The notes: generated by a model not told the origin, from the letters alone. A stretch of DNA of 64,000 nt from Planctomycetota bacterium (GCA_016709145.1 JADJEK010000009.1:126368-190367), one strand, 5' to 3'. Positions 4,414 to 13,701 are shown, counted from the stretch's first letter. Made by a program: numbers and translations.

Positions 4414-5361
4414 ATGCACCGTGTCCGCGTCGTCGATTCCCACACCGAAGGCGAGCCGACGCGCGTCGTGCTCGACGGAGCGCCGGACCTCGGCGGTGGA
4501 ACCGTCGCCGCGCAGGCCCGCGTGTTCCGCGAACGCTTCGACTGGTTCCGTGCGGCCGTCGTCAACGAACCACGCGGCCACGATGCGCTGGTCGGCGCGC
4601 TCGTCGTGCCGTCCGTCGAGCGCGACACCGTCTGCGGCGTGATCTTCTTCAACAACGTCGGACTGCTGAACGCTTGCGGACACGGCACGATCGGCCTCGC
4701 GCGGACGCTCGTCCACACGGGTCGCATCGGCGTCGGCCGCCATCGCTTCGAGACGCCCGTCGGCGTCGTCGCGGTCACGATCGACGCGCACGGTGACATC
4801 GAGCTCGACAACGTCGCGAGCTTCCGCCACGAGCTCGACGTCGCCGTCGACGTCGAGCTCGACGGCAGGACGCGCGTCATGCATGGCGACGTCGCGTGGG
4901 GTGGCAACTGGTTCTTCCTCGTCTCCGACCACGGCGAGCCGATCGAGCTCGCGCGCGTCGATCGTCTGACGTCCGTCGCTTGGGCGATCCGCGATGCGCT
5001 CGAGCGCCAGGGAGTGACGGGCAAGGACGGCGGCGTCATCGACCACGTCGAGTTGTTCGGCCCGCCGACGCGGTCCGACTGCGACTCGAAGAACTTCGTG
5101 CTTTGTCCCGGCAAGGCCTGGGATCGCTCGCCGTGCGGCACCGGCACCAGCGCGAAGCTCGCGTGTCTCGTCGCCGACGGCAAGCTCGCGCTGGGTGCGG
5201 AGTGGCGCCAAGAGAGCGTGATCGGCAGCCGCTTCGTCGGCCGCATGCGCGCCGAGCACGGGGCGTGGATCCCGACGATCCGCGGGCAGGCGTTCGTGAC
5301 CGCCGAGTCGACGTTGCTGATCGATCCGGGCGATCCGTTCCGGTACGGCTTCGGGTCATGA
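4414..5361 (+). CDS. 4-hydroxyproline 2-epimerase (proline racemase family)
   Basis: 315 aa. Proline-racemase-family motifs including SPCGTGTSAKLA, which carries the catalytic Cys. 7-nt gap after the preceding gene. Confidence 0.8.
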   Translation: MHRVRVVDSHTEGEPTRVVLDGAPDLGGGTVAAQARVFRERFDWFRAAVVNEPRGHDALVGALVVPSVERDTVCGVIFFNNVGLLNACGHGTIGLARTLVHTGRIGVGRHRFETPVGVVAVTIDAHGDIELDNVASFRHELDVAVDVELDGRTRVMHGDVAWGGNWFFLVSDHGEPIELARVDRLTSVAWAIRDALERQGVTGKDGGVIDHVELFGPPTRSDCDSKNFVLCPGKAWDRSPCGTGTSAKLACLVADGKLALGAEWRQESVIGSRFVGRMRAEHGAWIPTIRGQAFVTAESTLLIDPGDPFRYGFGS

Positions 5362-6500
5362 ACGGCGACGGCACTTCGTCTCGAGCGACCGACGTCCTCG
5401 TCGTCGGAGCGGGGATCGTCGGAGTGGCGTGCGCCGCCGCGTTCGCGGCCCGCGGCGCGACGGTGCGCGTGATCGAGCGCGGCCCGATCGGAGGTGGCGC
5501 GACCGCGGCCGGGATGGGGCACCTGATGGTCCTCGACGACGCACCGGCGGAGTTCGCGCTGACGAGGCGCTCGTGCGAATTGTGGACCGAACTCGCGCCC
5601 GACTTGCCGCCGCGCGCGGAGTACTCGGTGGCCGGAACGTTGTGGGTCGCGACCGACTCGGCCGAGTTCGATGTCGCACGAGCGAAGTTCGTGCGATTGC
5701 GCGAGGTCGGGATCGACGCCGATCTCCTCGACGAATCCGCGTTGCGGGAGGTTGAACCGGCGCTGCGTCCCGGACTCCTCGGGGGGCTGCGATTACCGAC
5801 CGAGGCCATCGTTTACCCGCCAGTCGTCGCTCGCTGGCTCCTTGATCGTGCGGGCATCCTGGGCCGCCCTTCGATGCTCTTTGCGCGAGTTGCGCGGATC
5901 GAGCCTGGACGCGTGACGCTCGACGACGGAACGGTGCTGGCGGCCGGGATCATCGTCAACGCCGCCGGCGTGGATGGCGGAACACTGACGCCCGGGATCG
6001 TGCTGCGTGCGCGCAAAGGCCACTTGATGATCACGGATCGCTACCCGGGACAGTTGAGGCACGAAGTCGTCGAACTCGGCTACATCAAGAACGCGCACGG
6101 CGCGGCGCTCGAATCCGTCGCCTGCAACGTCCAGCCGCGCGCGACCGGTCAGTGGCTCGTCGGATCGTCCCGACAATTCGACGTCGTCGATCCGCGAGCT
6201 GAACCGCGCATGCTGGCACGCGTCGCGGCGCGCGCGATCGAGTTCCTGCCGTGCCTCGCGCACATGAACGTCGTACGCGCGTGGACCGGCCTCCGGGCGG
6301 TGTCCGTCGACGGCTTGCCGATCATCGGCGAGCACCCGACCCAACGCGGAGTCTGGCTCGCGCTCGGGCACGAAGGACTCGGCATCACGACGGCGCTCGC
6401 GACCGCCGAACTGCTGGTCGACCTCGTGGAACGCCGTGAGCCGCGCGTGCCGGCCGCCGCGTTCGACCCCGCGCGCTGCGTCGTGGCGAGGGCGTCATGA
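5358..6500 (+). CDS. FAD-dependent oxidoreductase, D-hydroxyproline dehydrogenase beta-subunit-like (DadA/LhpB family)
   Basis: Start ATG overlaps the upstream stop (ATGA). N-terminal VLVVGAGIVGVACAAAFAARG dinucleotide-binding fold. In frame with ORF 4896..6500. Confidence 0.75.
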   Translation: MNGDGTSSRATDVLVVGAGIVGVACAAAFAARGATVRVIERGPIGGGATAAGMGHLMVLDDAPAEFALTRRSCELWTELAPDLPPRAEYSVAGTLWVATDSAEFDVARAKFVRLREVGIDADLLDESALREVEPALRPGLLGGLRLPTEAIVYPPVVARWLLDRAGILGRPSMLFARVARIEPGRVTLDDGTVLAAGIIVNAAGVDGGTLTPGIVLRARKGHLMITDRYPGQLRHEVVELGYIKNAHGAALESVACNVQPRATGQWLVGSSRQFDVVDPRAEPRMLARVAARAIEFLPCLAHMNVVRAWTGLRAVSVDGLPIIGEHPTQRGVWLALGHEGLGITTALATAELLVDLVERREPRVPAAAFDPARCVVARAS

Positions 6501-8026
6501 GCACGCGCGTGCGCATCGACGTGGACGGTCGCTCGATCGAGGTCGATGCCGACGCGTCGCTGGCCGCCGCGCTGATCACCGCGAACGTCGCCACCACGCG
6601 CACGAGCGTCCGCGGTGAACCTCGCGGGCCGCTCTGTGGCATGGGCGTGTGTTTCGAATGCCGCGCGACGGTCGACGACGTCCCGCACGTGCGAACGTGC
6701 ATGACGCGCGTGCGCGCCGGCATGCGTGTCCGCACGGGCGCACCGGCCGCCGCTCCCCTGACCGCCGCAGCGCCGCCGCTCGCTCGGCTCGATGCCGACG
6801 TGGTCGTGGTCGGCGCCGGACCGGCCGGCCTCGCCGCGGCGTGCGCGGCGGCGCAGGGCGGCAAGCGCGTGCTGATCCTCGACGACAACGACGGCACGGG
6901 CGGCCAGATCTGGCGGCGCGACGCGGCGACGCCGGCGGCGACGTGGCGCGCTCGTGCGCAGCGCCTCGGAGTCCTCGTCGAATCATCGACGCGCGTCGTC
7001 GGAGTCCACGACGAACGCAGCCTGCTCGCCGTGCGCGGCGATGCGGCGCGAGTGGTGGGCTACGGCGCGTTGGTGCTCGCGACCGGGTCGACCGAGCGCT
7101 TCGTGACGTTCCCCGGGTGGACGCTGCCGCGCGTGTTCGGCGCCGGCGGTGCGCAAGCGTTGCTGAAAAGCGGATTGCGCGTCGACGGCTCGCGAGTCGT
7201 CGTCGCCGGCAGCGGACCGCTGTTGCTCGCGGTCGCCGCGACGTGGGCGCGTCACGGCGCGCGCGTCGTGGCGCTGGTCGAGCAAGCTCCCGCGGCCCGC
7301 GTCCGCGCATTCGCGCGCGGGTTGTGGGCGCGCCCGGCCAAGCTCGCGCAAGCGGCGTGGCTGCGCGCGCGATTGCTCGGCGTGCCGTTCCGTATGGGCT
7401 GGTGGCCGCAGCGCATCGACTCCGCCGCCGACGCGCTGCGCGTGACGATCACCGACGGACGGCGCGTCGCCGCACTCGCGACCGACTACGTCGCGTGTGG
7501 GTTCGGCCTCGTGCCCGACGTGCGGCTCGCCGCGGTGCTCGGGTGCGCGATCGAGCGCGGCGCGGTCGTGGTCGACGACGAGCAACGCACCAGCGTGCCG
7601 CACGTGTTCTGCGCCGGCGAGACGACCGGGATCGGCGGTGTCGACAAAGCGCTACTCGAGGGCGAGCGCGCCGGCAGCGCGGCGGCGGGAATTCGCTCGA
7701 CGACCTCGCGCGCGATGCTGGCGCGCGAGCGCCGGTTCGCCGCGGCGCTCGAGACGACGTTCGCGCTGCGCGACGAACTGCGCGCCCTTACGGCGCCCGA
7801 CACGATCGTGTGTCGGTGCGAGGACGTCCTGCGCTCCGACGTCGACGCGTGCGCGTCGTGGCGCGACGCGAAGCTGCAGACGCGGATCGGCATGGGACCG
7901 TGCCAGGGTCGCGTCTGCGGCAGTGGCGTCGCGTTCACGCACGGCTTCGCGGTCGCCGACGCGCGGCCGCCCGTGTTCAATGTCCCGCTTTCGACCCTGT
8001 GTGGTGGACCGGACTCCGGAGCGTGA
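6497..8026 (+). CDS. fused [2Fe-2S] ferredoxin-like / FAD-NAD(P)-binding oxidoreductase subunit (HcnA-HcnB / opine oxidase-like; gamma-alpha subunits of D-hydroxyproline dehydrogenase)
   Basis: ATGA overlap with the upstream gene. N-terminal CGMGVCFEC cluster motif. Two Rossmann GxGxxG motifs (VVVVGAGPAGLAAA and VVVAGSGPLLLAVAA). Confidence 0.75.
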   Translation: MSTRVRIDVDGRSIEVDADASLAAALITANVATTRTSVRGEPRGPLCGMGVCFECRATVDDVPHVRTCMTRVRAGMRVRTGAPAAAPLTAAAPPLARLDADVVVVGAGPAGLAAACAAAQGGKRVLILDDNDGTGGQIWRRDAATPAATWRARAQRLGVLVESSTRVVGVHDERSLLAVRGDAARVVGYGALVLATGSTERFVTFPGWTLPRVFGAGGAQALLKSGLRVDGSRVVVAGSGPLLLAVAATWARHGARVVALVEQAPAARVRAFARGLWARPAKLAQAAWLRARLLGVPFRMGWWPQRIDSAADALRVTITDGRRVAALATDYVACGFGLVPDVRLAAVLGCAIERGAVVVDDEQRTSVPHVFCAGETTGIGGVDKALLEGERAGSAAAGIRSTTSRAMLARERRFAAALETTFALRDELRALTAPDTIVCRCEDVLRSDVDACASWRDAKLQTRIGMGPCQGRVCGSGVAFTHGFAVADARPPVFNVPLSTLCGGPDSGA

Positions 8027-8030
8027 ACCC

Positions 8031-8963
8031 ATGACGACGCGAGACCCGATGCGAGCGACCGACTGGCGCGGAGTGCTGCCGGCGATCACGACGCCGTTCG
8101 ACGCGCACGACCGCATCGACCTCGCGTTCGTGCGCAAGCACGTCGCGTGGCTCGTCGACGCCGGTTGCCGCGGTATCGTCACGCCGGGCTCGCTCGGCGA
8201 AGGCGCGACGCTGAGTGGCGCCGAGAAGACGGCGCTGTGGTCGGCGTGCGTGGACGCGGTCGGCGCGCGCGTGCCGGTGATCGCCGCGATCGCGTCGGCC
8301 AGCACGGCGGACGCCGTCGCGCTCGCGGAGGCCGCGGTCGATGCCGGTTGCCGCGGGCTGATGGTGCTGCCGCCGTACCTCTACAAGGGCGCGTGGCGCG
8401 AGACGAAGGCGCACTTCGCCGCGGTGCTGCGCGCGACTCCGGCGACGGCGATGCTCTACAACAACCCGATCGCCTACGGCGTCGACGCGATGCCCGAGCA
8501 GGTCGCCGAACTCGCGGCCGAACACCCGAGCCTCCTCGCCGTCAAGGAATCGAGCGCCGACGTGCGCCGCATCACCGCGATCCGCTCGCAGTGCGGCGAT
8601 CGCTTGCAGATCAGCGTCGGTGTCGACGACCTGCTGGTCGAAGGCGTCGCCGCGGGCGCCGTCGGTTGGGTCGCCGGACTCGTCAACGCGTTGCCGCTCG
8701 AATCGGTGCGGCTGTTCGACCTCGCGCGCGCGGGACGCTCGCCGGAATGCGACGCGCTCTACGGGTGGTTCCTGCCGCTGTTGCGCATGGACACGACCTA
8801 CGACTTCGTCCAGCTCATCAAGCTCGTCCAACACGAAGTCGGCATGACCGGCAGCGGCGGGCCGATCGTGCGGGGGCCGCGGCGTTTGCCGGAAGGCGAG
8901 GAGCTCGAACGGACCGTCGGTGTCATTCGCGCAACCCTCGCGGCTCGACACATCCTGCGTTAG
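8031..8963 (+). CDS. dihydrodipicolinate synthase-family lyase, probable delta1-pyrroline-4-hydroxy-2-carboxylate deaminase
   Basis: ATG lies 5 nt after the upstream stop and is in frame with ORF 7497..8963. DapA/NAL-family motifs (GIVTPGSLGEGATLS, the Schiff-base Lys region, LAVKESS). Its position in the operon supports the assignment. Confidence 0.75.
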   Translation: MTTRDPMRATDWRGVLPAITTPFDAHDRIDLAFVRKHVAWLVDAGCRGIVTPGSLGEGATLSGAEKTALWSACVDAVGARVPVIAAIASASTADAVALAEAAVDAGCRGLMVLPPYLYKGAWRETKAHFAAVLRATPATAMLYNNPIAYGVDAMPEQVAELAAEHPSLLAVKESSADVRRITAIRSQCGDRLQISVGVDDLLVEGVAAGAVGWVAGLVNALPLESVRLFDLARAGRSPECDALYGWFLPLLRMDTTYDFVQLIKLVQHEVGMTGSGGPIVRGPRRLPEGEELERTVGVIRATLAARHILR

Positions 8964-9094
8964 AAGAGTGACGCAACGACTGGCGACTTGAAACTCGACG
9001 GCCCTCCAGCGCCTGTGACATTGACCGATGGTTCGAATCCAAGCACTGAGGCGCACGAGCTCGATACCTGGCCGGACATCCATCCGATGGAGCA

Positions 9095-10315
9095 ATGCAA
9101 GATCGCATGAGCCCGTACACGGACCAGGAATTGGAAGCGCTCTTGCGGGACGTCGAATCGGACCGCGTCGAGCGCAAGGAGTCGTTGGGGGGAGACGCGC
9201 CGACCAAGGTCCGGGAAGCCATTTGCGCGTTCGCCAACGACCTCCCAGATCATCGGCGATCAGGTGTCGTCTTCATCGGCGCGACCGACGACGGCCGACC
9301 GGTCGGACTTCCGATCACGGATGAGCTGCTGCGGTTGCTTGCGGATATGAAAACCGATGGAAACACGCTTCCGCCTCCAACGCTCGCCGTCGAGAAGCGC
9401 AAGCTGATGAACTTGGATGTGGCGGTCGTCACCGTGGAACCAGCAGACGCTCCTCCGGTTCGATTCAAGGGGAGGATTCACATCCGTGTCGGGCCGCGGC
9501 GCGCGATCGCGACCGCCCAGGACGAACGTGTTCTCAACGAGAAGCGGCGGCATCGGGATCGTCCGTTCGACACCCGCGCGGTGTCGGTCGCGACCATCTC
9601 GGATCTTGATCGTCGCCGATTCGAGGATGAGTATCTCGTATCTGCGGTCGCGGCGGACGTGCTGGCGGCGAACGAGCGCACGTACGAACAACGACTTGCT
9701 GCTACGAAAATGGTCGTTTCTGCCGACGAGCCCACACCGACGGTCCTCGGAGTCCTGGTGCTCTCGTCGCGCACCCGAGACTTCTTGCCAGGCGCGTATG
9801 TCCAGTTCTTGAGGATCGCCGGCCGAGACTTTGCCGACGACGTCGTCGATGAGCAGACGATCGACGGCGCGGTCGCCGACTTGCTTCGCCGAGTCGAAGA
9901 GAAGTTGATGGCGCACAACCAAACGAGCGTGAGCTTCGCAGAGTCGGTCGTCGAGCGACGGCGATCGACCTACCCAATGGCAGCTCTCCAACAGATCGTG
10001 CGCAATGCCGTGATGCACCGCAGTTATGAGATCACGAACTCACCGATTCGGATCACGTGGTTCGACGATCGAATCGAGATTCTGAGTCCGGGTGGCCCGT
10101 ACGGAGTCGTTACCGAGAGCAATTTCGGCCAGCCAGGGATCGCCGACTATCGGAATCCGAGCTTGGCGGAAGCACTCAAGGTACTTGGGTTCGTGCAGAA
10201 GTACGGCGCTGGAATTGCGACGGCGCGTCGGGCACTCGCAGAGAACGGGAATCCGATCTTCGAGGTCGAGATCACGCAGTCGCACGTCAATTTCACGTTG
10301 CGAGCGCGTTCGTGA
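9095..10315 (+). CDS. COG2865-type ATP-binding protein (AlbA_2/Schlafen-like divergent AAA domain plus RecG-C-terminal-like HATPase_c_4 domain); often annotated as a putative transcriptional regulator
   Basis: 406 aa. N-terminal AICAFANDLP...GVVFIGATDDG segment typical of the AlbA_2 domain. C-terminal LQQIVRNAVMHRSYE segment typical of HATPase_c_4. Lies in a lower-GC island. Confidence 0.65.
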   Translation: MQDRMSPYTDQELEALLRDVESDRVERKESLGGDAPTKVREAICAFANDLPDHRRSGVVFIGATDDGRPVGLPITDELLRLLADMKTDGNTLPPPTLAVEKRKLMNLDVAVVTVEPADAPPVRFKGRIHIRVGPRRAIATAQDERVLNEKRRHRDRPFDTRAVSVATISDLDRRRFEDEYLVSAVAADVLAANERTYEQRLAATKMVVSADEPTPTVLGVLVLSSRTRDFLPGAYVQFLRIAGRDFADDVVDEQTIDGAVADLLRRVEEKLMAHNQTSVSFAESVVERRRSTYPMAALQQIVRNAVMHRSYEITNSPIRITWFDDRIEILSPGGPYGVVTESNFGQPGIADYRNPSLAEALKVLGFVQKYGAGIATARRALAENGNPIFEVEITQSHVNFTLRARS

Positions 10316-11310
10316 AGACCATAGCGTTCTTCAACAACAAGGGGGGTGTCGGCAAGACCTCGTTGGTCTACCACTTGGCATGGATGTATGCGGACATGGG
10401 GGTGTCGGTGATCGCCGCCGATCTCGACCCACAGTCCAATCTCACCGCGATGTTCCTCGGAGATGAACGCCTGGAGAGTCTGTGGCCAGCCTCACGGCCC
10501 AGTTCGACGGTGTTCGGTGCGATCAGGCCGCTCCTGGACGGTACCGGTGACGTCGGGACTCCGCACGTCGAACACGTCAGCGAAAGGATAGGACTGCTTG
10601 CCGGCGACCTCGCTATTTCGGAGTTCGAGGACGAGTTGACCCGACAGTGGTCGGATTGCTTGGATCGCAAGCCAAGAGCGTTTCGTGTCGTTTCCGCGTT
10701 CTGGCGACTCTGCGAAGCGGCCGCGACCGAGAGGGGTGCGACATTGGTCTTGATGGATGTCGGCCCGAATCTCGGTGCGATCAATCGAGCTGCTCTGATC
10801 GCCGCACAGAACGTCGTCATTCCGCTGGCGCCGGACCTGTTCTCGATCCAGGGTCTGCGGAATCTTGGGCCGGCGCTGTTCCGGTGGCGACGCGAGTGGG
10901 CCGATCGAGTGCAGCGCAAGCCGCCGGAGGACACGATATCGATTCCCAGAGGCGACATGGTGCCCGTTGGGTACGTAGTAATGCAGCACGCGGTTCGCTT
11001 GGATCGTCCCGTAGTCGCCTATGACCGATGGATGAAGTTGATTCCGTCGGTTTATCGAGAAGCGGTACTCAAAGAACCGGTCATCGGGCATGTTCCGTCG
11101 ATCGAAGAAGACACTCACCGACTCGCTGCGTTGAAGCACTACCGAAGTTTGATGCCGCTCGCGCAAGTGGCTCACAAGCCGATGTTCCAACTGAAGGCGG
11201 CAGATGGAGCGCTGGGCGGTCACGCGAAGGCTGTGCAGGATTGTTATCGAGACTTCCACGATCTCGCGCGTGTGATTGGCGAGCGTTGTCACGTATTCGA
11301 TTCGAATTGA
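10312..11310 (+). CDS. ParA/MinD-family P-loop ATPase, orphan (no parB or partition site recognised nearby)
   Basis: GTG start overlaps the upstream stop (GTGA). Deviant Walker A FFNNKGGVGKTS. About 332 aa. Lowest-GC segment of the window. Confidence 0.7.
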   Translation: MKTIAFFNNKGGVGKTSLVYHLAWMYADMGVSVIAADLDPQSNLTAMFLGDERLESLWPASRPSSTVFGAIRPLLDGTGDVGTPHVEHVSERIGLLAGDLAISEFEDELTRQWSDCLDRKPRAFRVVSAFWRLCEAAATERGATLVLMDVGPNLGAINRAALIAAQNVVIPLAPDLFSIQGLRNLGPALFRWRREWADRVQRKPPEDTISIPRGDMVPVGYVVMQHAVRLDRPVVAYDRWMKLIPSVYREAVLKEPVIGHVPSIEEDTHRLAALKHYRSLMPLAQVAHKPMFQLKAADGALGGHAKAVQDCYRDFHDLARVIGERCHVFDSN

Positions 11311-11346
11311 GTCGTCACGAACTGCGAACGTGAGTCGGCCGGTCCG

Positions 11347-12768
11347 TCAGAACGGAACCGTCTTCGCGAGCAGCAGCGCGACGTTCTCGACGTGATCCGT
11401 GTGCGGGAACAAGTCCACCGGCGCGACGCGCGCGAGTGTGAACGCCGGCGCCAGCGCGGCGATGTCCTTCGCTTGCGATTCGGGATTGCAGCTCACGTAG
11501 ACCAGGCGGCGCGGTCGCATCGCGCCGAGACTCTGAACGACCTTCGGATGCAAGCCGGCGCGCGGCGGATCGACGATGACGACGTCGGGTTCGCCGTACT
11601 TGCGCACGAGGTCGTGATTGAGCTTCTCGGCGATGTCGCCGGACTCGAACGCGACGTTCGTGACGCCGTTGCGGTCGGCGTTCTGGCGCGCGTGGTGGAC
11701 GGCTTCCGCGTCGAGTTCGAGACCGAGGACGCGCTTCGCGTGTCCCGACACGAACAGCGTGATCGTGCCGACACCGGAGAACAGGTCGTAGACGAGGTCG
11801 TCCTGCGTCAGGTCGGCGAACTCGAGCGCGAGCTCGTACAGGCGCTCGGCCTGCTCGGTGTTGGTCTGGAAGAACGAGGACGGTCCGATGCGGAACTCGT
11901 GCGGTCCGATGCGATCGACGACGCTGCCGGAGCCGAACACGACGCTCTGACTCTGTCCGATCGCGACCTGCGCGAGGCCCGAGTGGATCGTGTTCACGAA
12001 CGTCGTCACCGCGGGGACGTCGCGGCGCAAGAACGCGGCGATCGTGTCGATGCGTTGCGGATCGTGGCTGCTCGTGACGAGGTTGACGAGCACGTCGCTC
12101 GTTCGAGCCGGCAATCGCAGCCCGAGGTGGCGCAGGTAGCCCTCGTGCGTCTTGGTGTTCCACGGCGCGTAGCCGTGCTCGAGCGCGAGCGCGCGCAAGC
12201 CGTTCACGACCGCTTGGGCCGGCGGCGGCGGCAGGTGGCACTCGTGCAAGTCGACGACGCGGTCGAAATGCAGCGGCAAGTGCAGGCCGAGCGCGAAGTC
12301 CTTGCGCATCGGCTCGCCCGACGCGATCTCCCAGTCGGTCAGCCAGCGCCGCGCGCCGAACGAGAACTCCATCTTGTTGCGGTACTCGTAGAGCCTCGCC
12401 GCGGCGAGCGGCGTCGGCACGCCGCCCGGCACCTCGATCCGATGGCGCGCGAACGCGTCCTCGACCGCTTGGCGCTTCAGGTCGAGCTGCGCCGAATACA
12501 GCAGGTTCTGGCGCTTGCAGCCGCCGCAGTGCCCGAAGTACCGGCAGCGCGGATCGACGCGCAGCGGGCTCTTTTCGACGACTTCGAGGATCTCGGCCTC
12601 GAACATGCGGCGTGATTTGCGCGCGACGCGCACACGCAGCGTGTCGCCGGGGACGGCGCCGCCGTGGATGTAGAGCGTTCCCTCGGGCAATCGCGCGGAC
12701 GCGAGTCCCTGGGGTTCGATCTGGTCGACGGTGAGAGTGTGTTCGTTGCCGATGCGGAAGGCGGGCAT
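11347..12768 (-). CDS. rlmD: 23S rRNA (uracil-5-)-methyltransferase RlmD/RumA family (TRAM domain, [4Fe-4S] Cys cluster, SAM methyltransferase)
   Basis: Start taken at MPAFRIGNEH (ATG complement at 12766-12768). The long 688-aa ORF is an upstream in-frame extension. Conserved CxxxxxxCxxC plus a C-terminal Cys, DLFSGVGTITL SAM motif and C-terminal VDLFPHTDHVE motif. Confidence 0.8.
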   Translation of the reverse strand: MPAFRIGNEHTLTVDQIEPQGLASARLPEGTLYIHGGAVPGDTLRVRVARKSRRMFEAEILEVVEKSPLRVDPRCRYFGHCGGCKRQNLLYSAQLDLKRQAVEDAFARHRIEVPGGVPTPLAAARLYEYRNKMEFSFGARRWLTDWEIASGEPMRKDFALGLHLPLHFDRVVDLHECHLPPPPAQAVVNGLRALALEHGYAPWNTKTHEGYLRHLGLRLPARTSDVLVNLVTSSHDPQRIDTIAAFLRRDVPAVTTFVNTIHSGLAQVAIGQSQSVVFGSGSVVDRIGPHEFRIGPSSFFQTNTEQAERLYELALEFADLTQDDLVYDLFSGVGTITLFVSGHAKRVLGLELDAEAVHHARQNADRNGVTNVAFESGDIAEKLNHDLVRKYGEPDVVIVDPPRAGLHPKVVQSLGAMRPRRLVYVSCNPESQAKDIAALAPAFTLARVAPVDLFPHTDHVENVALLLAKTVPF

Positions 12769-12891
12769 GAGGCGGAGCAGGGTAGAGGGTCGAGACGACG
12801 GACGGTCGGGGCTTCTTCGACGGGCTGCTAACTTGGTCTCCCCGTGTCGACGTCGACGGCGGTGTCGGTGGCGCGCTTTGGAGGACTCGGA

Positions 12892-13701
12892 ATGCGTCGA
12901 TGGCTGGTCGTGGCCGCGTTGGTGTTCGCTTGGGCGTCGATTGCGGCAGGCTGGGGCACGAAAGGCCACGGCATCACCGGGATCATCGCGGAGAAGTTCC
13001 TGACCGCCGACGCGAAGGCCGGCGTCGAGGACTTGATCGGGCGTTCGCGGCTCGTGTGGATCTCGACGTGGGCGGACGTGATCCGCGACGAGCAACCCGA
13101 CACGGCCCCGTGGCATTACGTGAACATCGCGCCGGGCGCCGAGGGCTACGAGCGCGAGCGCGACTGCGCGGATGGACGCTGCGTGGTCGAGAAGATCGAG
13201 GAGATGAAGCGCGTACTGGTCGATCCAGACCGCGAGAAGACCGAGCGCGTCCACGCGCTGAAGTGGCTGGTCCACTTGGTCGGCGACGTGCATCAGCCGC
13301 TGCATTGCGCGAACGCGGCCGATCGCGGCGGCAACTCGATCCACGTCACGCTCGACGGCGAGCGCTACAACCTGCACGAGCTGTGGGACTCGACGGTGAT
13401 CGAGCGTCAGCACCTCGACGAGGGCGCGTACGCGAAGGCGTTGATCGACGAGATCCGCGAATCGGACGTGGCGTCGTGGCAGCAGGGCTCGGCGGCGGAA
13501 TGGGCGACCGAAACGTGGAAGCTCGCGCGGACGGTCGCCTACGTCGACGAGCGCGGCGAGGCGATCGTGGACGGCGCCAAGCTCACGCGCACGTACGTGA
13601 CGACGCGCGTGCCGGTGATCGACGAGCAGTTGAAGAAGGCCGGAGTCCGACTCGCGGGGCTGTTGAACGACGCTTTCAAGCCTGCCGCGCCACCCAAGTG
13701 A
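12892..13701 (+). CDS. S1/P1-family secreted endonuclease
   Basis: Signal peptide MRRWLVVAALVFAWASIAAG followed by WGTKGH, then HY, HLVGDVHQPLH and NxxDxGGN Zn-ligand motifs. An in-frame upstream ATG at 12844 is an alternative start. Confidence 0.75.
   Translation: MRRWLVVAALVFAWASIAAGWGTKGHGITGIIAEKFLTADAKAGVEDLIGRSRLVWISTWADVIRDEQPDTAPWHYVNIAPGAEGYERERDCADGRCVVEKIEEMKRVLVDPDREKTERVHALKWLVHLVGDVHQPLHCANAADRGGNSIHVTLDGERYNLHELWDSTVIERQHLDEGAYAKALIDEIRESDVASWQQGSAAEWATETWKLARTVAYVDERGEAIVDGAKLTRTYVTTRVPVIDEQLKKAGVRLAGLLNDAFKPAAPPK

Follow-up and report, generated by a model that had tools for sequence, protein, structure and literature searches.

The question raised by a small low-GC island in the genome of a Planctomycetota bacterium is what a ParA-like ATPase gene, with no parB beside it, is doing in overlap with the gene for a Schlafen-type protein. 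The two genes, hereafter A and B, lie in a 64-kb stretch of DNA (the window; GCA_016709145.1 JADJEK010000009.1:126368-190367), to which all coordinates refer unless another locus is named. A sequence-only reading of the window had placed them between a hydroxyproline operon and rlmD, and had suggested either an uncharacterised defence or abortive-infection module or a relic of an integrated element. The answer favoured here, with a probability of about 60%, is that A and B form a self-contained, horizontally mobile two-gene defence module of the abortive-infection type, undescribed so far. The sequence comparisons that support a defence role, and with it the first of these two suggestions, are the embedding of the pair in Helicase-Methylase-ATPase (Hma) systems and the swapping of effectors among relatives of B. 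Of the three outcomes that the sequence-only reading had named as refuting it (a pair not conserved as neighbours, a partition partner just outside the island, no deviation in GC), none was seen. The features on which the argument draws are as follows.

9107..10315 (alternative ATG 9095), + strand: gene A, 402 aa (406 aa from 9095), a Schlafen(AlbA_2)-GHKL 'Schlatpase' and predicted nuclease effector
10312..11310, + strand: gene B, 332 aa, a 'long' ParA/Soj-like ATPase (DIP2308-like subfamily), predicted to control A as a switch or sensor that dimerises in an ATP-dependent way
9155..9238, + strand: Schlafen nuclease signature in gene A, with E(x)4ExK at nt 9155-9178 and the CAFAN box at nt 9224-9238
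9992..10300, + strand: GHKL (HATPase_c_4) module of gene A, from the Pfam match, with N-box QQIVRNAVMHRSY
10312..10315, + strand: GTGA start/stop overlap of A and B, read from the sequence, with the GTG start of B on the TGA stop of A
10333..10359, + strand: deviant Walker A motif NNKGGVGKT of gene B, with signature Lys K10 and P-loop Lys K15
8964..9106, + strand: upstream intergenic region, the left edge of the low-GC block and of the high-divergence block
11311..11346, no strand: 36-nt spacer separating the stop of B from that of the rlmD-like gene, which is convergent; it forms the cassette's right edge

Residue numbers in gene A are counted from the ATG at 9095, unless the 9107 start is named. 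The open reading frames (ORFs) found were 9095..10315 on the + strand (406 aa) and 10057..11310, in whose frame B begins with the GTG at 10312. The ATG at 9107 is favoured as the start of A by the NCBI model and by the modal family length of 402 aa. Identical proteins are named by NCBI as 'putative DNA binding domain-containing protein' (402 aa, A) and 'ParA family protein' (B).

The A-B pair and its two proteins

GTDB contigs, with one genome per species, were scanned with an alignment of B, yielding at least 591 pattern-confirmed matches, the best 80 of which were examined. These 80 loci are spread over more than 15 bacterial phyla and include one Methanosarcinales archaeon, nearly all of them coming from metagenome-assembled genomes (MAGs). 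A homologue of A, located by tblastn, ends at the start of B on the same strand in 79 of the 80. At the junction of the two genes, a 4-bp overlap is present in 52 of 77 loci, and the others range from -1 to +8 nt, except for the disrupted locus L012. In the window, the overlap is read directly from the sequence ...cgttcGTGAagacc... at 10312-10315, where the GTG of B shares 4 nt with the TGA of A, as had been noticed at the outset; such translational coupling implies that the two proteins are made together. The distance matrices of A and B are also correlated (Mantel r = 0.48, a value reached by 0 of 999 permutations). The pair is thus a conserved unit, and the ParA-like gene, described as an orphan by the sequence-only reading, has gene A as its obligate partner; the conserved synteny for which that reading proposed a check was found. 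No third conserved gene accompanies the two, since all-against-all clustering of flanking ORFs gave no family in more than 7 of the 80 loci, and neither parB nor a centromere-like repeat is conserved with the pair in these loci, in line with the earlier remark that no partition gene or site lies nearby.

Rare degraded copies were also encountered. In a Capsulimonadaceae MAG (L012:5360-8004), ~1.1 kb of inserted DNA with two small ORFs interrupts A; in L023:7693-7989, A is truncated to its last ~60 codons; and in L039, B is present without A. B is intact in all three of these loci.

Gene A encodes a SLFN_AlbA_2 domain (PF04326, residues 21-135, E 6.8e-14) followed by a HATPase_c_4 domain (PF13749, residues 316-402, E 5.7e-16), both above the gathering cut-off, and their succession on one polypeptide is the domain architecture of Schlatpases, or COG2865, confirming the family first assigned to it. 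The nuclease motif consists of E21-S-D-R-V-E26-R-K28 and C-A-F-A-N at residues 44-48, after which a Gly/hydrophobic core leads to D65/D66 (nt 9287-9292), likely the third acidic residue. Across 72 family members, E21, E26, C44 and D49 are each kept in 71, A45 and N48 in all, and D65 in 65. For SLFN-pAgo (Schlafen-type prokaryotic Argonaute) and mammalian SLFN proteins, the nuclease signature has been defined as E(x)4(D/E)xK together with a SAFAN box, and its mutation in RzAgo abolishes tRNA cleavage (10.64898/2026.05.29.728809). With its catalytic motif intact and matching the RzAgo signature, gene A is predicted to be a competent nuclease effector.

The GHKL domain of A departs from the canonical form. 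In the N-box, N304 is invariant, and Q300 stands at the position of the catalytic Glu. PDB 3lmm, which among PDB entries matches A best both by sequence and by fold, has a Glu there, within 'VREAMLNAMIHRDW', when the two are aligned. Position 300 is Q in 56 and E in 16 of the 72 sequences. In RzAgo, E314 and N318 coordinate Mg-ATP, and the E314 mutant binds ATP without hydrolysing it (10.64898/2026.05.29.728809). The earlier description of the cassette as paired ATPases was misleading, because A appears to be primarily a Schlafen-type nuclease whose GHKL catalytic Glu is replaced by Gln. A C-terminal winged helix-turn-helix (wHTH) domain is common, though not universal, in COG2865 proteins; in A, no HTH family was detected at E <= 0.01, and the protein ends right after HATPase_c_4, at residue 406.

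Two side observations concern the A family. Residues 28 and 300 covary perfectly in the 72 homologues, K28 (codon at nt 9176-9178) accompanying Q300 (nt 9992-9994) in 56 and T28 accompanying E300 in 16 (L013, L016, L027, L029, L031, L036, L051, L052, L054, L057, L058, L060, L062, L065, L066 and L069), which may go back to one split in the phylogeny or to a trade-off in function between these domains. Additionally, a close homologue with 69% identity (P0187, 695 aa) is annotated with an extra AbiEi_4 domain (PF13338), the result either of fusion with an antitoxin-type domain of abortive infection or of faulty gene calling on a contig of 3.5 kb.

Gene B belongs to Pfam AAA_31/CbiA (E 4e-22), carrying the deviant Walker A motif NNKGGVGKT. 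The Walker A residues K10 and K15, the Walker A' residues D37/D39 and the Walker B residue D149 are invariant or nearly so in the alignments. An AlphaFold2 (AF2) model of B reached a pLDDT of 86 and a pTM of 0.89, and a Foldseek search with this model ranked 3pg5 first (the uncharacterised ParA-like protein DIP2308; E 6e-15, TM 0.69-0.74), ahead of Soj 2bek (E 7e-11). The family profile likewise matches 3pg5 at E 9e-36 versus 6e-15 for Soj, and PHROG 164, 'ParA-like partition protein', matches B at E 7e-36. The family, at ~330 aa, is ~70% identical across Planctomycetota, Gammaproteobacteria, Chloroflexota, Dehalococcoidia and a Thermoplasmata archaeon. Its mean pairwise distance is 0.39, as against 0.50 for A, and this stronger conservation of B is more easily reconciled with a sensor of some conserved cellular cue than with one that directly recognises a phage protein evolving fast.

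Hma neighbourhoods and partners of distant B relatives

Hma is a defence system of which 1,485 examples are known from >230,000 genomes (Payne et al., 10.1101/2024.01.29.577857). Payne et al. nominated defence candidates by their embedding in Hma, requiring that a cassette occur in >5 Hma systems and also in >100 genomes outside Hma, and seven of the nine cassettes tested protected against phage (10.1101/2024.01.29.577857). Clustering of ORFs placed an HmaA-like or HmaB-like gene directly beside the A-B pair in 9 of the 80 loci, and a tenth Hma locus (L004) carries an HmaA-like helicase gene at the second position upstream of the pair. In four loci the pair lies strictly between HmaA and HmaB, according to full-length PADLOC matches: HmaA-[A-B]-HmaB-HmaC (1680, 1517 and 1126 bits for the three Hma proteins) in L002, HmaA-[A-B]-HmaB in L022, HmaA-PD-T4-6-[A-B]-HmaB in L045, and HmaA-[A-B]-AbiLi/AriA-like ATPase-...-HmaB in L001. 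At the other five adjoining loci, the pair has just one Hma-type neighbour, HmaA-like or HmaB-like, and some Hma contigs end too early to judge. In L062, the pair is flanked by an HmaB-like methylase (ORF cluster) and a PLD-type helicase. Further defence neighbours comprise BrxC in one locus and a mad3/mad8-like domain in two.

The immediate neighbours of the pair are otherwise highly diverse and mostly housekeeping genes, including gyrase, UvrA, KdpD, ribonucleotide reductase and tRNA synthetases, a diversity which indicates that the cassette inserts autonomously, in the window as elsewhere. Genes of 1,100-1,190 aa situated upstream of the pair in L009, L050, L060, L066 and L015 were considered as defence partners and gave no PADLOC matches. 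On an IMG/VR contig carrying the pair (L110), the next downstream gene (6978-9293, 771 aa) has a weak PglZ-domain match (E 3e-5), its score falling just under the gathering cut-off; this hints that a BREX-related gene adjoins the pair on this contig, which has been classed as viral.

More distant relatives of B occur beside different effectors. Full-length relatives at 24-39% identity keep the B-specific motifs GDxxLSxFED, W192, G220, S279, Q285, P290 and DGxxG. In Salmonella, Spirosoma and Vibrio ponticus, such a relative is adjoined downstream by a SIR2 gene, each time with a 4-bp overlap, and in Paeniglutamicibacter the SIR2 gene begins 80 nt downstream. The two SIR2 proteins that were scanned, from Salmonella and Spirosoma, match defence SIR2 models of the ThsA/Dsr/LmuA type. 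Among 80 IMG/VR loci of B relatives, SIR2 comes directly next in 22 and a RelA_SpoT-domain protein of 218-315 aa in 25. Together, these arrangements suggest one constant ATPase module with swappable effectors (Schlafen-GHKL, SIR2 and RelA_SpoT), as far as homology can tell; such a layout, with three unrelated families of toxic effectors around a constant module, is typical of defence and toxin-antitoxin (TA) systems. No literature describing the A-B pair, or linking Schlafen, SIR2 or toxSAS genes with ParA-like ATPases, was found, in a search that mostly left subscription papers outside.

The cassette in which a long ParA-like ATPase precedes SIR2 (L100:5001-6916, L103:5001-6886, L105:5001-6856, L108:6001-7892, and in IMG/VR, for example, L135, L137 and L167) ranges over Proteobacteria, Bacteroidota, Actinomycetota and viral contigs, and PADLOC has no model for its ATPase. 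The ParA-like/RelA_SpoT cassette is common on viral or proviral contigs (for example L134:6001-7766, L145:5896-7682 and L148:6001-7781) and resembles a toxin of the toxSAS type paired with a ParA-like protein. Additionally, the P22-like prophages ST160 (L101:3995-5068) and SE1 carry a lone B relative in the cI-to-N moron site, flanked by the c2 repressor and the gene 24 antiterminator; this relative adjoins a DUF3024 gene matching the PADLOC candidate PDC-S43 (E 2e-41). In V. ponticus, the SIR2-coupled relative and a genuine ParA-ParB pair reside on one plasmid.

Horizontal spread, selection and composition

The cassette has spread horizontally across bacterial lineages and some archaeal ones. 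The closest homologues, at ~73% identity, are found in other phyla and in archaea; for both A and B the nearest ones lie outside the phylum of the window. The GC content of the pair tracks that of its host (r = 0.88) and lies below that of the flanks in 60 of 70 loci, by a mean of 4.2 points. In the window, the pair has 60.6% GC versus 69.3% in the rest, and the bins 9001-10000 (62.3%) and 10001-11000 (60.4%) are the lowest of the 64 1-kb bins, bearing out the low-GC island first described. The figure of 55-60% exactly across both genes was slightly too low, and the edges are less sharp than claimed: in 300-nt windows, GC falls to 56-64% from ~8750 to ~11450, so that the dip extends slightly into the intergenic DNA and the rlmD 3' end.

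A metagenomic relative, L081, preserves the same order of hydroxyproline operon, A, B and rlmD. Its Pfam-labelled neighbourhood comprises Aldedh, Pro_racemase, DAO, FAD oxidoreductase and DHDPS upstream of the pair, followed downstream by a convergent tRNA_U5-meth_tr (RlmD-like) gene and an S1-P1 nuclease gene, matching the location proposed for the cassette. Relative to L081, dS (synonymous divergence) is 0.08-0.10 in flanking genes, 0.35 in rlmD and 0.79-0.80 in A and B, placing the cassette ~8-fold above the flanking genes, while dN/dS (the ratio of nonsynonymous to synonymous divergence) is 0.068 for A and 0.057 for B. Nucleotide identity is 93-99% outside and 75-89% between ~8900 and ~11450. 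On the left, it falls from 93-98% to 75-79% within 8964..9106; on the right, the divergence persists to ~11450-11600, within the rlmD 3' end. A dN/dS of ~0.06 together with intact ORFs means that the cassette is under strong purifying selection and is no relic, contrary to the second suggestion of the sequence-only reading. The raised dS implies that its history is decoupled from that of its neighbours, either through allelic replacement by recombination or as an old polymorphism.

An empty site was sought by scanning metagenome contigs with the upstream DHDPS-like protein, and none of the 16 matches keeps the DHDPS-rlmD synteny; being only ~60% identical, these matches give no direct demonstration of insertion. 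No tRNA genes occur in the 64-kb window, and an Rfam scan of it gave no match. Searches for direct or inverted repeats, att sites, terminal inverted repeats and centromere repeats around the cassette returned chance-level short matches only. No sigma-70-like promoter was detected in 8964..9106, and promoter and terminator scans were uninformative. Three more stretches diverge from L081 (68-87% versus 93-99%), at 5300-6050 in the DAO-like gene, 11900-12200 in the rlmD 5' half, and 12800-12937 in the spacer between rlmD and the S1/P1 nuclease gene, suggesting a mosaic recombination history for the whole region.

Proposed mechanism and competing explanations

In the scheme that follows from the favoured reading, A would be the effector, a stand-alone Schlatpase joining a metal-dependent RNA nuclease to a GHKL nucleotide-binding domain, and its target would probably be tRNA, by analogy with SLFN-pAgo and CRISPR-associated Schlafens. 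The GHKL domain, with Q300, probably binds ATP for oligomerisation without resetting itself by hydrolysis. A and B are probably co-translated and complex-forming. B would act as a ParA/MinD-class switch whose ATP-bound dimer, probably associated with the nucleoid through non-specific DNA binding, keeps A from assembling an active oligomer. Infection would alter the nucleotide or DNA state of B and release A, which, permanently ATP-loaded through Q300, would oligomerise and cut tRNA or other RNA, aborting the infection. The opposite polarity, with B as the activator of A, is also possible. Inference extends here to the nuclease substrate, the direction in which B regulates A, the nature of the trigger and the anti-phage phenotype. 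The Glu-to-Gln change in the GHKL domain and the missing wHTH of A would fit a transfer of hydrolytic switching and DNA contact to the ParA-like partner.

A wider proposal can be put forward tentatively, at somewhat less than even odds. The long ParA-like ATPase of the DIP2308-like clade might be the constant sensor or regulator of an unrecognised two-gene immune and toxin superfamily found in bacteria, archaea and prophages, coupling a conserved cue, such as the nucleoid or DNA state or the ATP level, to at least three interchangeable effectors (the Schlafen-GHKL nuclease, the SIR2 NADase and RelA/SpoT-type toxSAS). In the Schlafen branch, ATP-hydrolytic control would have moved from the Gln-inactivated GHKL domain of the effector to its ParA-like partner.

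Several observations weigh against a defence role. About 80-85% of the examined loci lie among housekeeping genes and not in defence islands, as in the window. PADLOC-DB v2.0.0 has no model for the pair: A matches only pAgo-associated SLFN/GHKL models, over residues 145-405, and B only the P-loop of PDC-M28B, over 39 residues (E 7e-6), so that the scan suggested by the sequence-only reading matched no known system and A-B stands outside any that PADLOC catalogues, probably because the pair is almost confined to uncultured lineages represented by MAGs. The B family, at >=55% identity, is found in none of 72,556 plasmids or 50,697 phage genomes, and only two IMG/VR contigs carry it. B evolves more slowly than A, although a sensor engaged in an arms race usually outpaces its effector. 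The argument from partner swapping rests on relatives only 24-39% identical to B, and the nuclease motif is not universal in the A family, because K28 is replaced by T in a subclade of 16 members. Finally, the AF2 model of A, built from 27 close homologues, has a pLDDT of 58, with residues 115-230 disordered. A fold search with it returned only 3lmm and weak histidine-kinase and SLFN11 matches, and the model was used for domain identity only, owing to its poor quality.

The main rival to the defence reading is a TA-like module for addiction or stress, not dedicated to action against phage, in which A would be a toxic RNase and B its ATP-dependent neutraliser, serving as a selfish element or growth-arrest switch. 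Two tightly coupled genes, lone cassettes among housekeeping genes at most loci, a GC content below that of the host, and the pairing of B relatives with the classic toxin domains SIR2 and RelA_SpoT (toxSAS-like) are all compatible with it, and many toxins sharing one partner resemble the promiscuous antitoxin domains of PanA/Panacea-type TA systems. This explanation is nonetheless judged unlikely: the Hma embedding beside PD-T4-6 and AbiL-like genes speaks specifically for immunity, A and B greatly exceed the usual size of type II TA components, and the family was on no plasmid searched, though addiction modules are usually plasmid-borne. TA and defence functions, moreover, are not mutually exclusive. 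Less probable again is a housekeeping or regulatory pair, in which A would be a DNA- or RNA-binding regulator that B positions or remodels on the nucleoid. The source annotations of A ('putative DNA binding domain-containing protein' or 'transcriptional regulator'), the mostly housekeeping contexts and the high conservation of both proteins under strong purifying selection agree with such a role, but A, with only AlbA_2 and HATPase_c_4, lacks the wHTH behind the 'regulator' label, its nuclease catalytic residues are invariant, no target gene is conserved next door, the patchy range is incongruent with phylogeny, the nearest relatives being in other phyla, and the dS of the cassette is 8-fold that of its flanks.

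A non-canonical system for segregating or positioning DNA, with B as a ParA motor and A as an adaptor, or ParB analogue, for a chromosome region or an integrated element, would account for the full ParA/Soj fold and motifs of B and for its PHROG 164 match. It is nevertheless very improbable, as the surroundings of the pair in the window contain no parB, centromere-like repeats or replicon genes, none of these is conserved in the 80 loci, the gene order is reversed relative to par operons, and the plasmids searched lack the family. The SIR2 and RelA_SpoT partners of the relatives are no adaptors, and the SIR2-coupled relative of V. ponticus coexists with a genuine ParA-ParB on the same plasmid. 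The low-GC island and the lack of remaining mobility genes could be read as a decaying relic of an integrated mobile element without current function, the least credible of the readings and one effectively refuted by the intact ORFs, the dN/dS of 0.06-0.07 against the syntenic relative, the retention of all catalytic motifs and the same intact pair in 79 of 80 loci.

The cassette has counterparts among known systems, and would operate in the manner of other two-gene defence systems made of an ATPase and a nuclease, and of Schlatpase effectors. Recent work has established the SLFN-GHKL 'Schlatpase' supradomain as a tRNA nuclease in defence that is gated by ATP (10.64898/2026.05.29.728809). Schlatpases (RzAgo, COG2865) share with A the PF04326 and PF13749 architecture, the E(x)4(D/E)xK motif, the SAFAN-type box, and an occurrence inside BREX-related or Hma loci; A differs in having no Argonaute, NACHT or wHTH sensor domain and in its GHKL Glu, which is Gln in 56 of 72 members, including the window copy. 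No conserved partner has been reported for SLFN-pAgos (10.64898/2026.05.29.728809), whereas A is coupled to a dedicated ParA-like ATPase. Schlafen-histidine-kinase-wHTH (COG2865) proteins are widespread in BREX and BREX-related loci (PMC12839542), and links to BREX, restriction-modification and CRISPR systems have been noted for many ATPase-domain Schlafens of prokaryotes (PMC13462974). Cash (CRISPR-associated Schlafen), a tRNA nuclease switched on by cA4 in type III CRISPR immunity (PMC13462974), resembles the scheme proposed for A-B in placing a Schlafen effector under a separate nucleotide-binding sensor module; Cash has a fused, cA4-activated Csx15 domain, while A-B has no CRISPR context and a separate ParA-class protein as its control module. 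HEC-01 to HEC-09 (10.1101/2024.01.29.577857) are, like A-B, small cassettes found between hmaA and hmaB and also alone elsewhere, several of them likewise two-gene systems of an ATPase and a nuclease. Their ATPases are of the ABC class, with TOPRIM, NERD or PIN partners, and A and B match no HEC or PDC model beyond the P-loop.

B shares the deviant Walker A, Walker A' and Walker B motifs and the fold of ParA/Soj/MinD proteins, differing from the 250-aa Soj in its length of ~330 aa, with insertions missing from Soj, and in having a predicted nuclease as partner. The defining features of ParABS, namely ParB, centromere and replicon, are absent from A-B. PanA/Panacea-type modules are alike in setting one module beside several toxic families, with B being a dimerising P-loop ATPase in place of a small antitoxin domain. 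ParA/MinD-class ATPases are known for organising DNA and protein cargo in space; a ParA clade controlling toxic immune effectors, if confirmed, would widen these roles, and no description of such a clade was found. Prokaryotic Schlafen nucleases have been shown in defence only recently, in papers of 2026, and for the regulation of stand-alone Schlatpases the cassette offers a simple two-protein system with a genetically separable regulator, in which the Glu-to-Gln change in A hints at a division of labour between two nucleotide-binding modules. The cassette also exposes a gap in current defence surveys and is a well-defined candidate for phage testing.

A last observation concerns the closest structures to B (3pg5, DIP2308) and A (3lmm, DIP2311), both of which come from Corynebacterium diphtheriae and bear neighbouring locus tags. 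An operonic link between the two was considered and rejected: the ParA-like gene (L106:4170-5279) and the AlbA_2/HATPase_c_4 gene (L106:12329-13279) are ~7 kb apart, with seven housekeeping genes between them, and DIP2308 is a lone gene in Corynebacterium that shares no operon with the latter. Their proximity looks like coincidence or loose linkage, and both structures are usable as templates.

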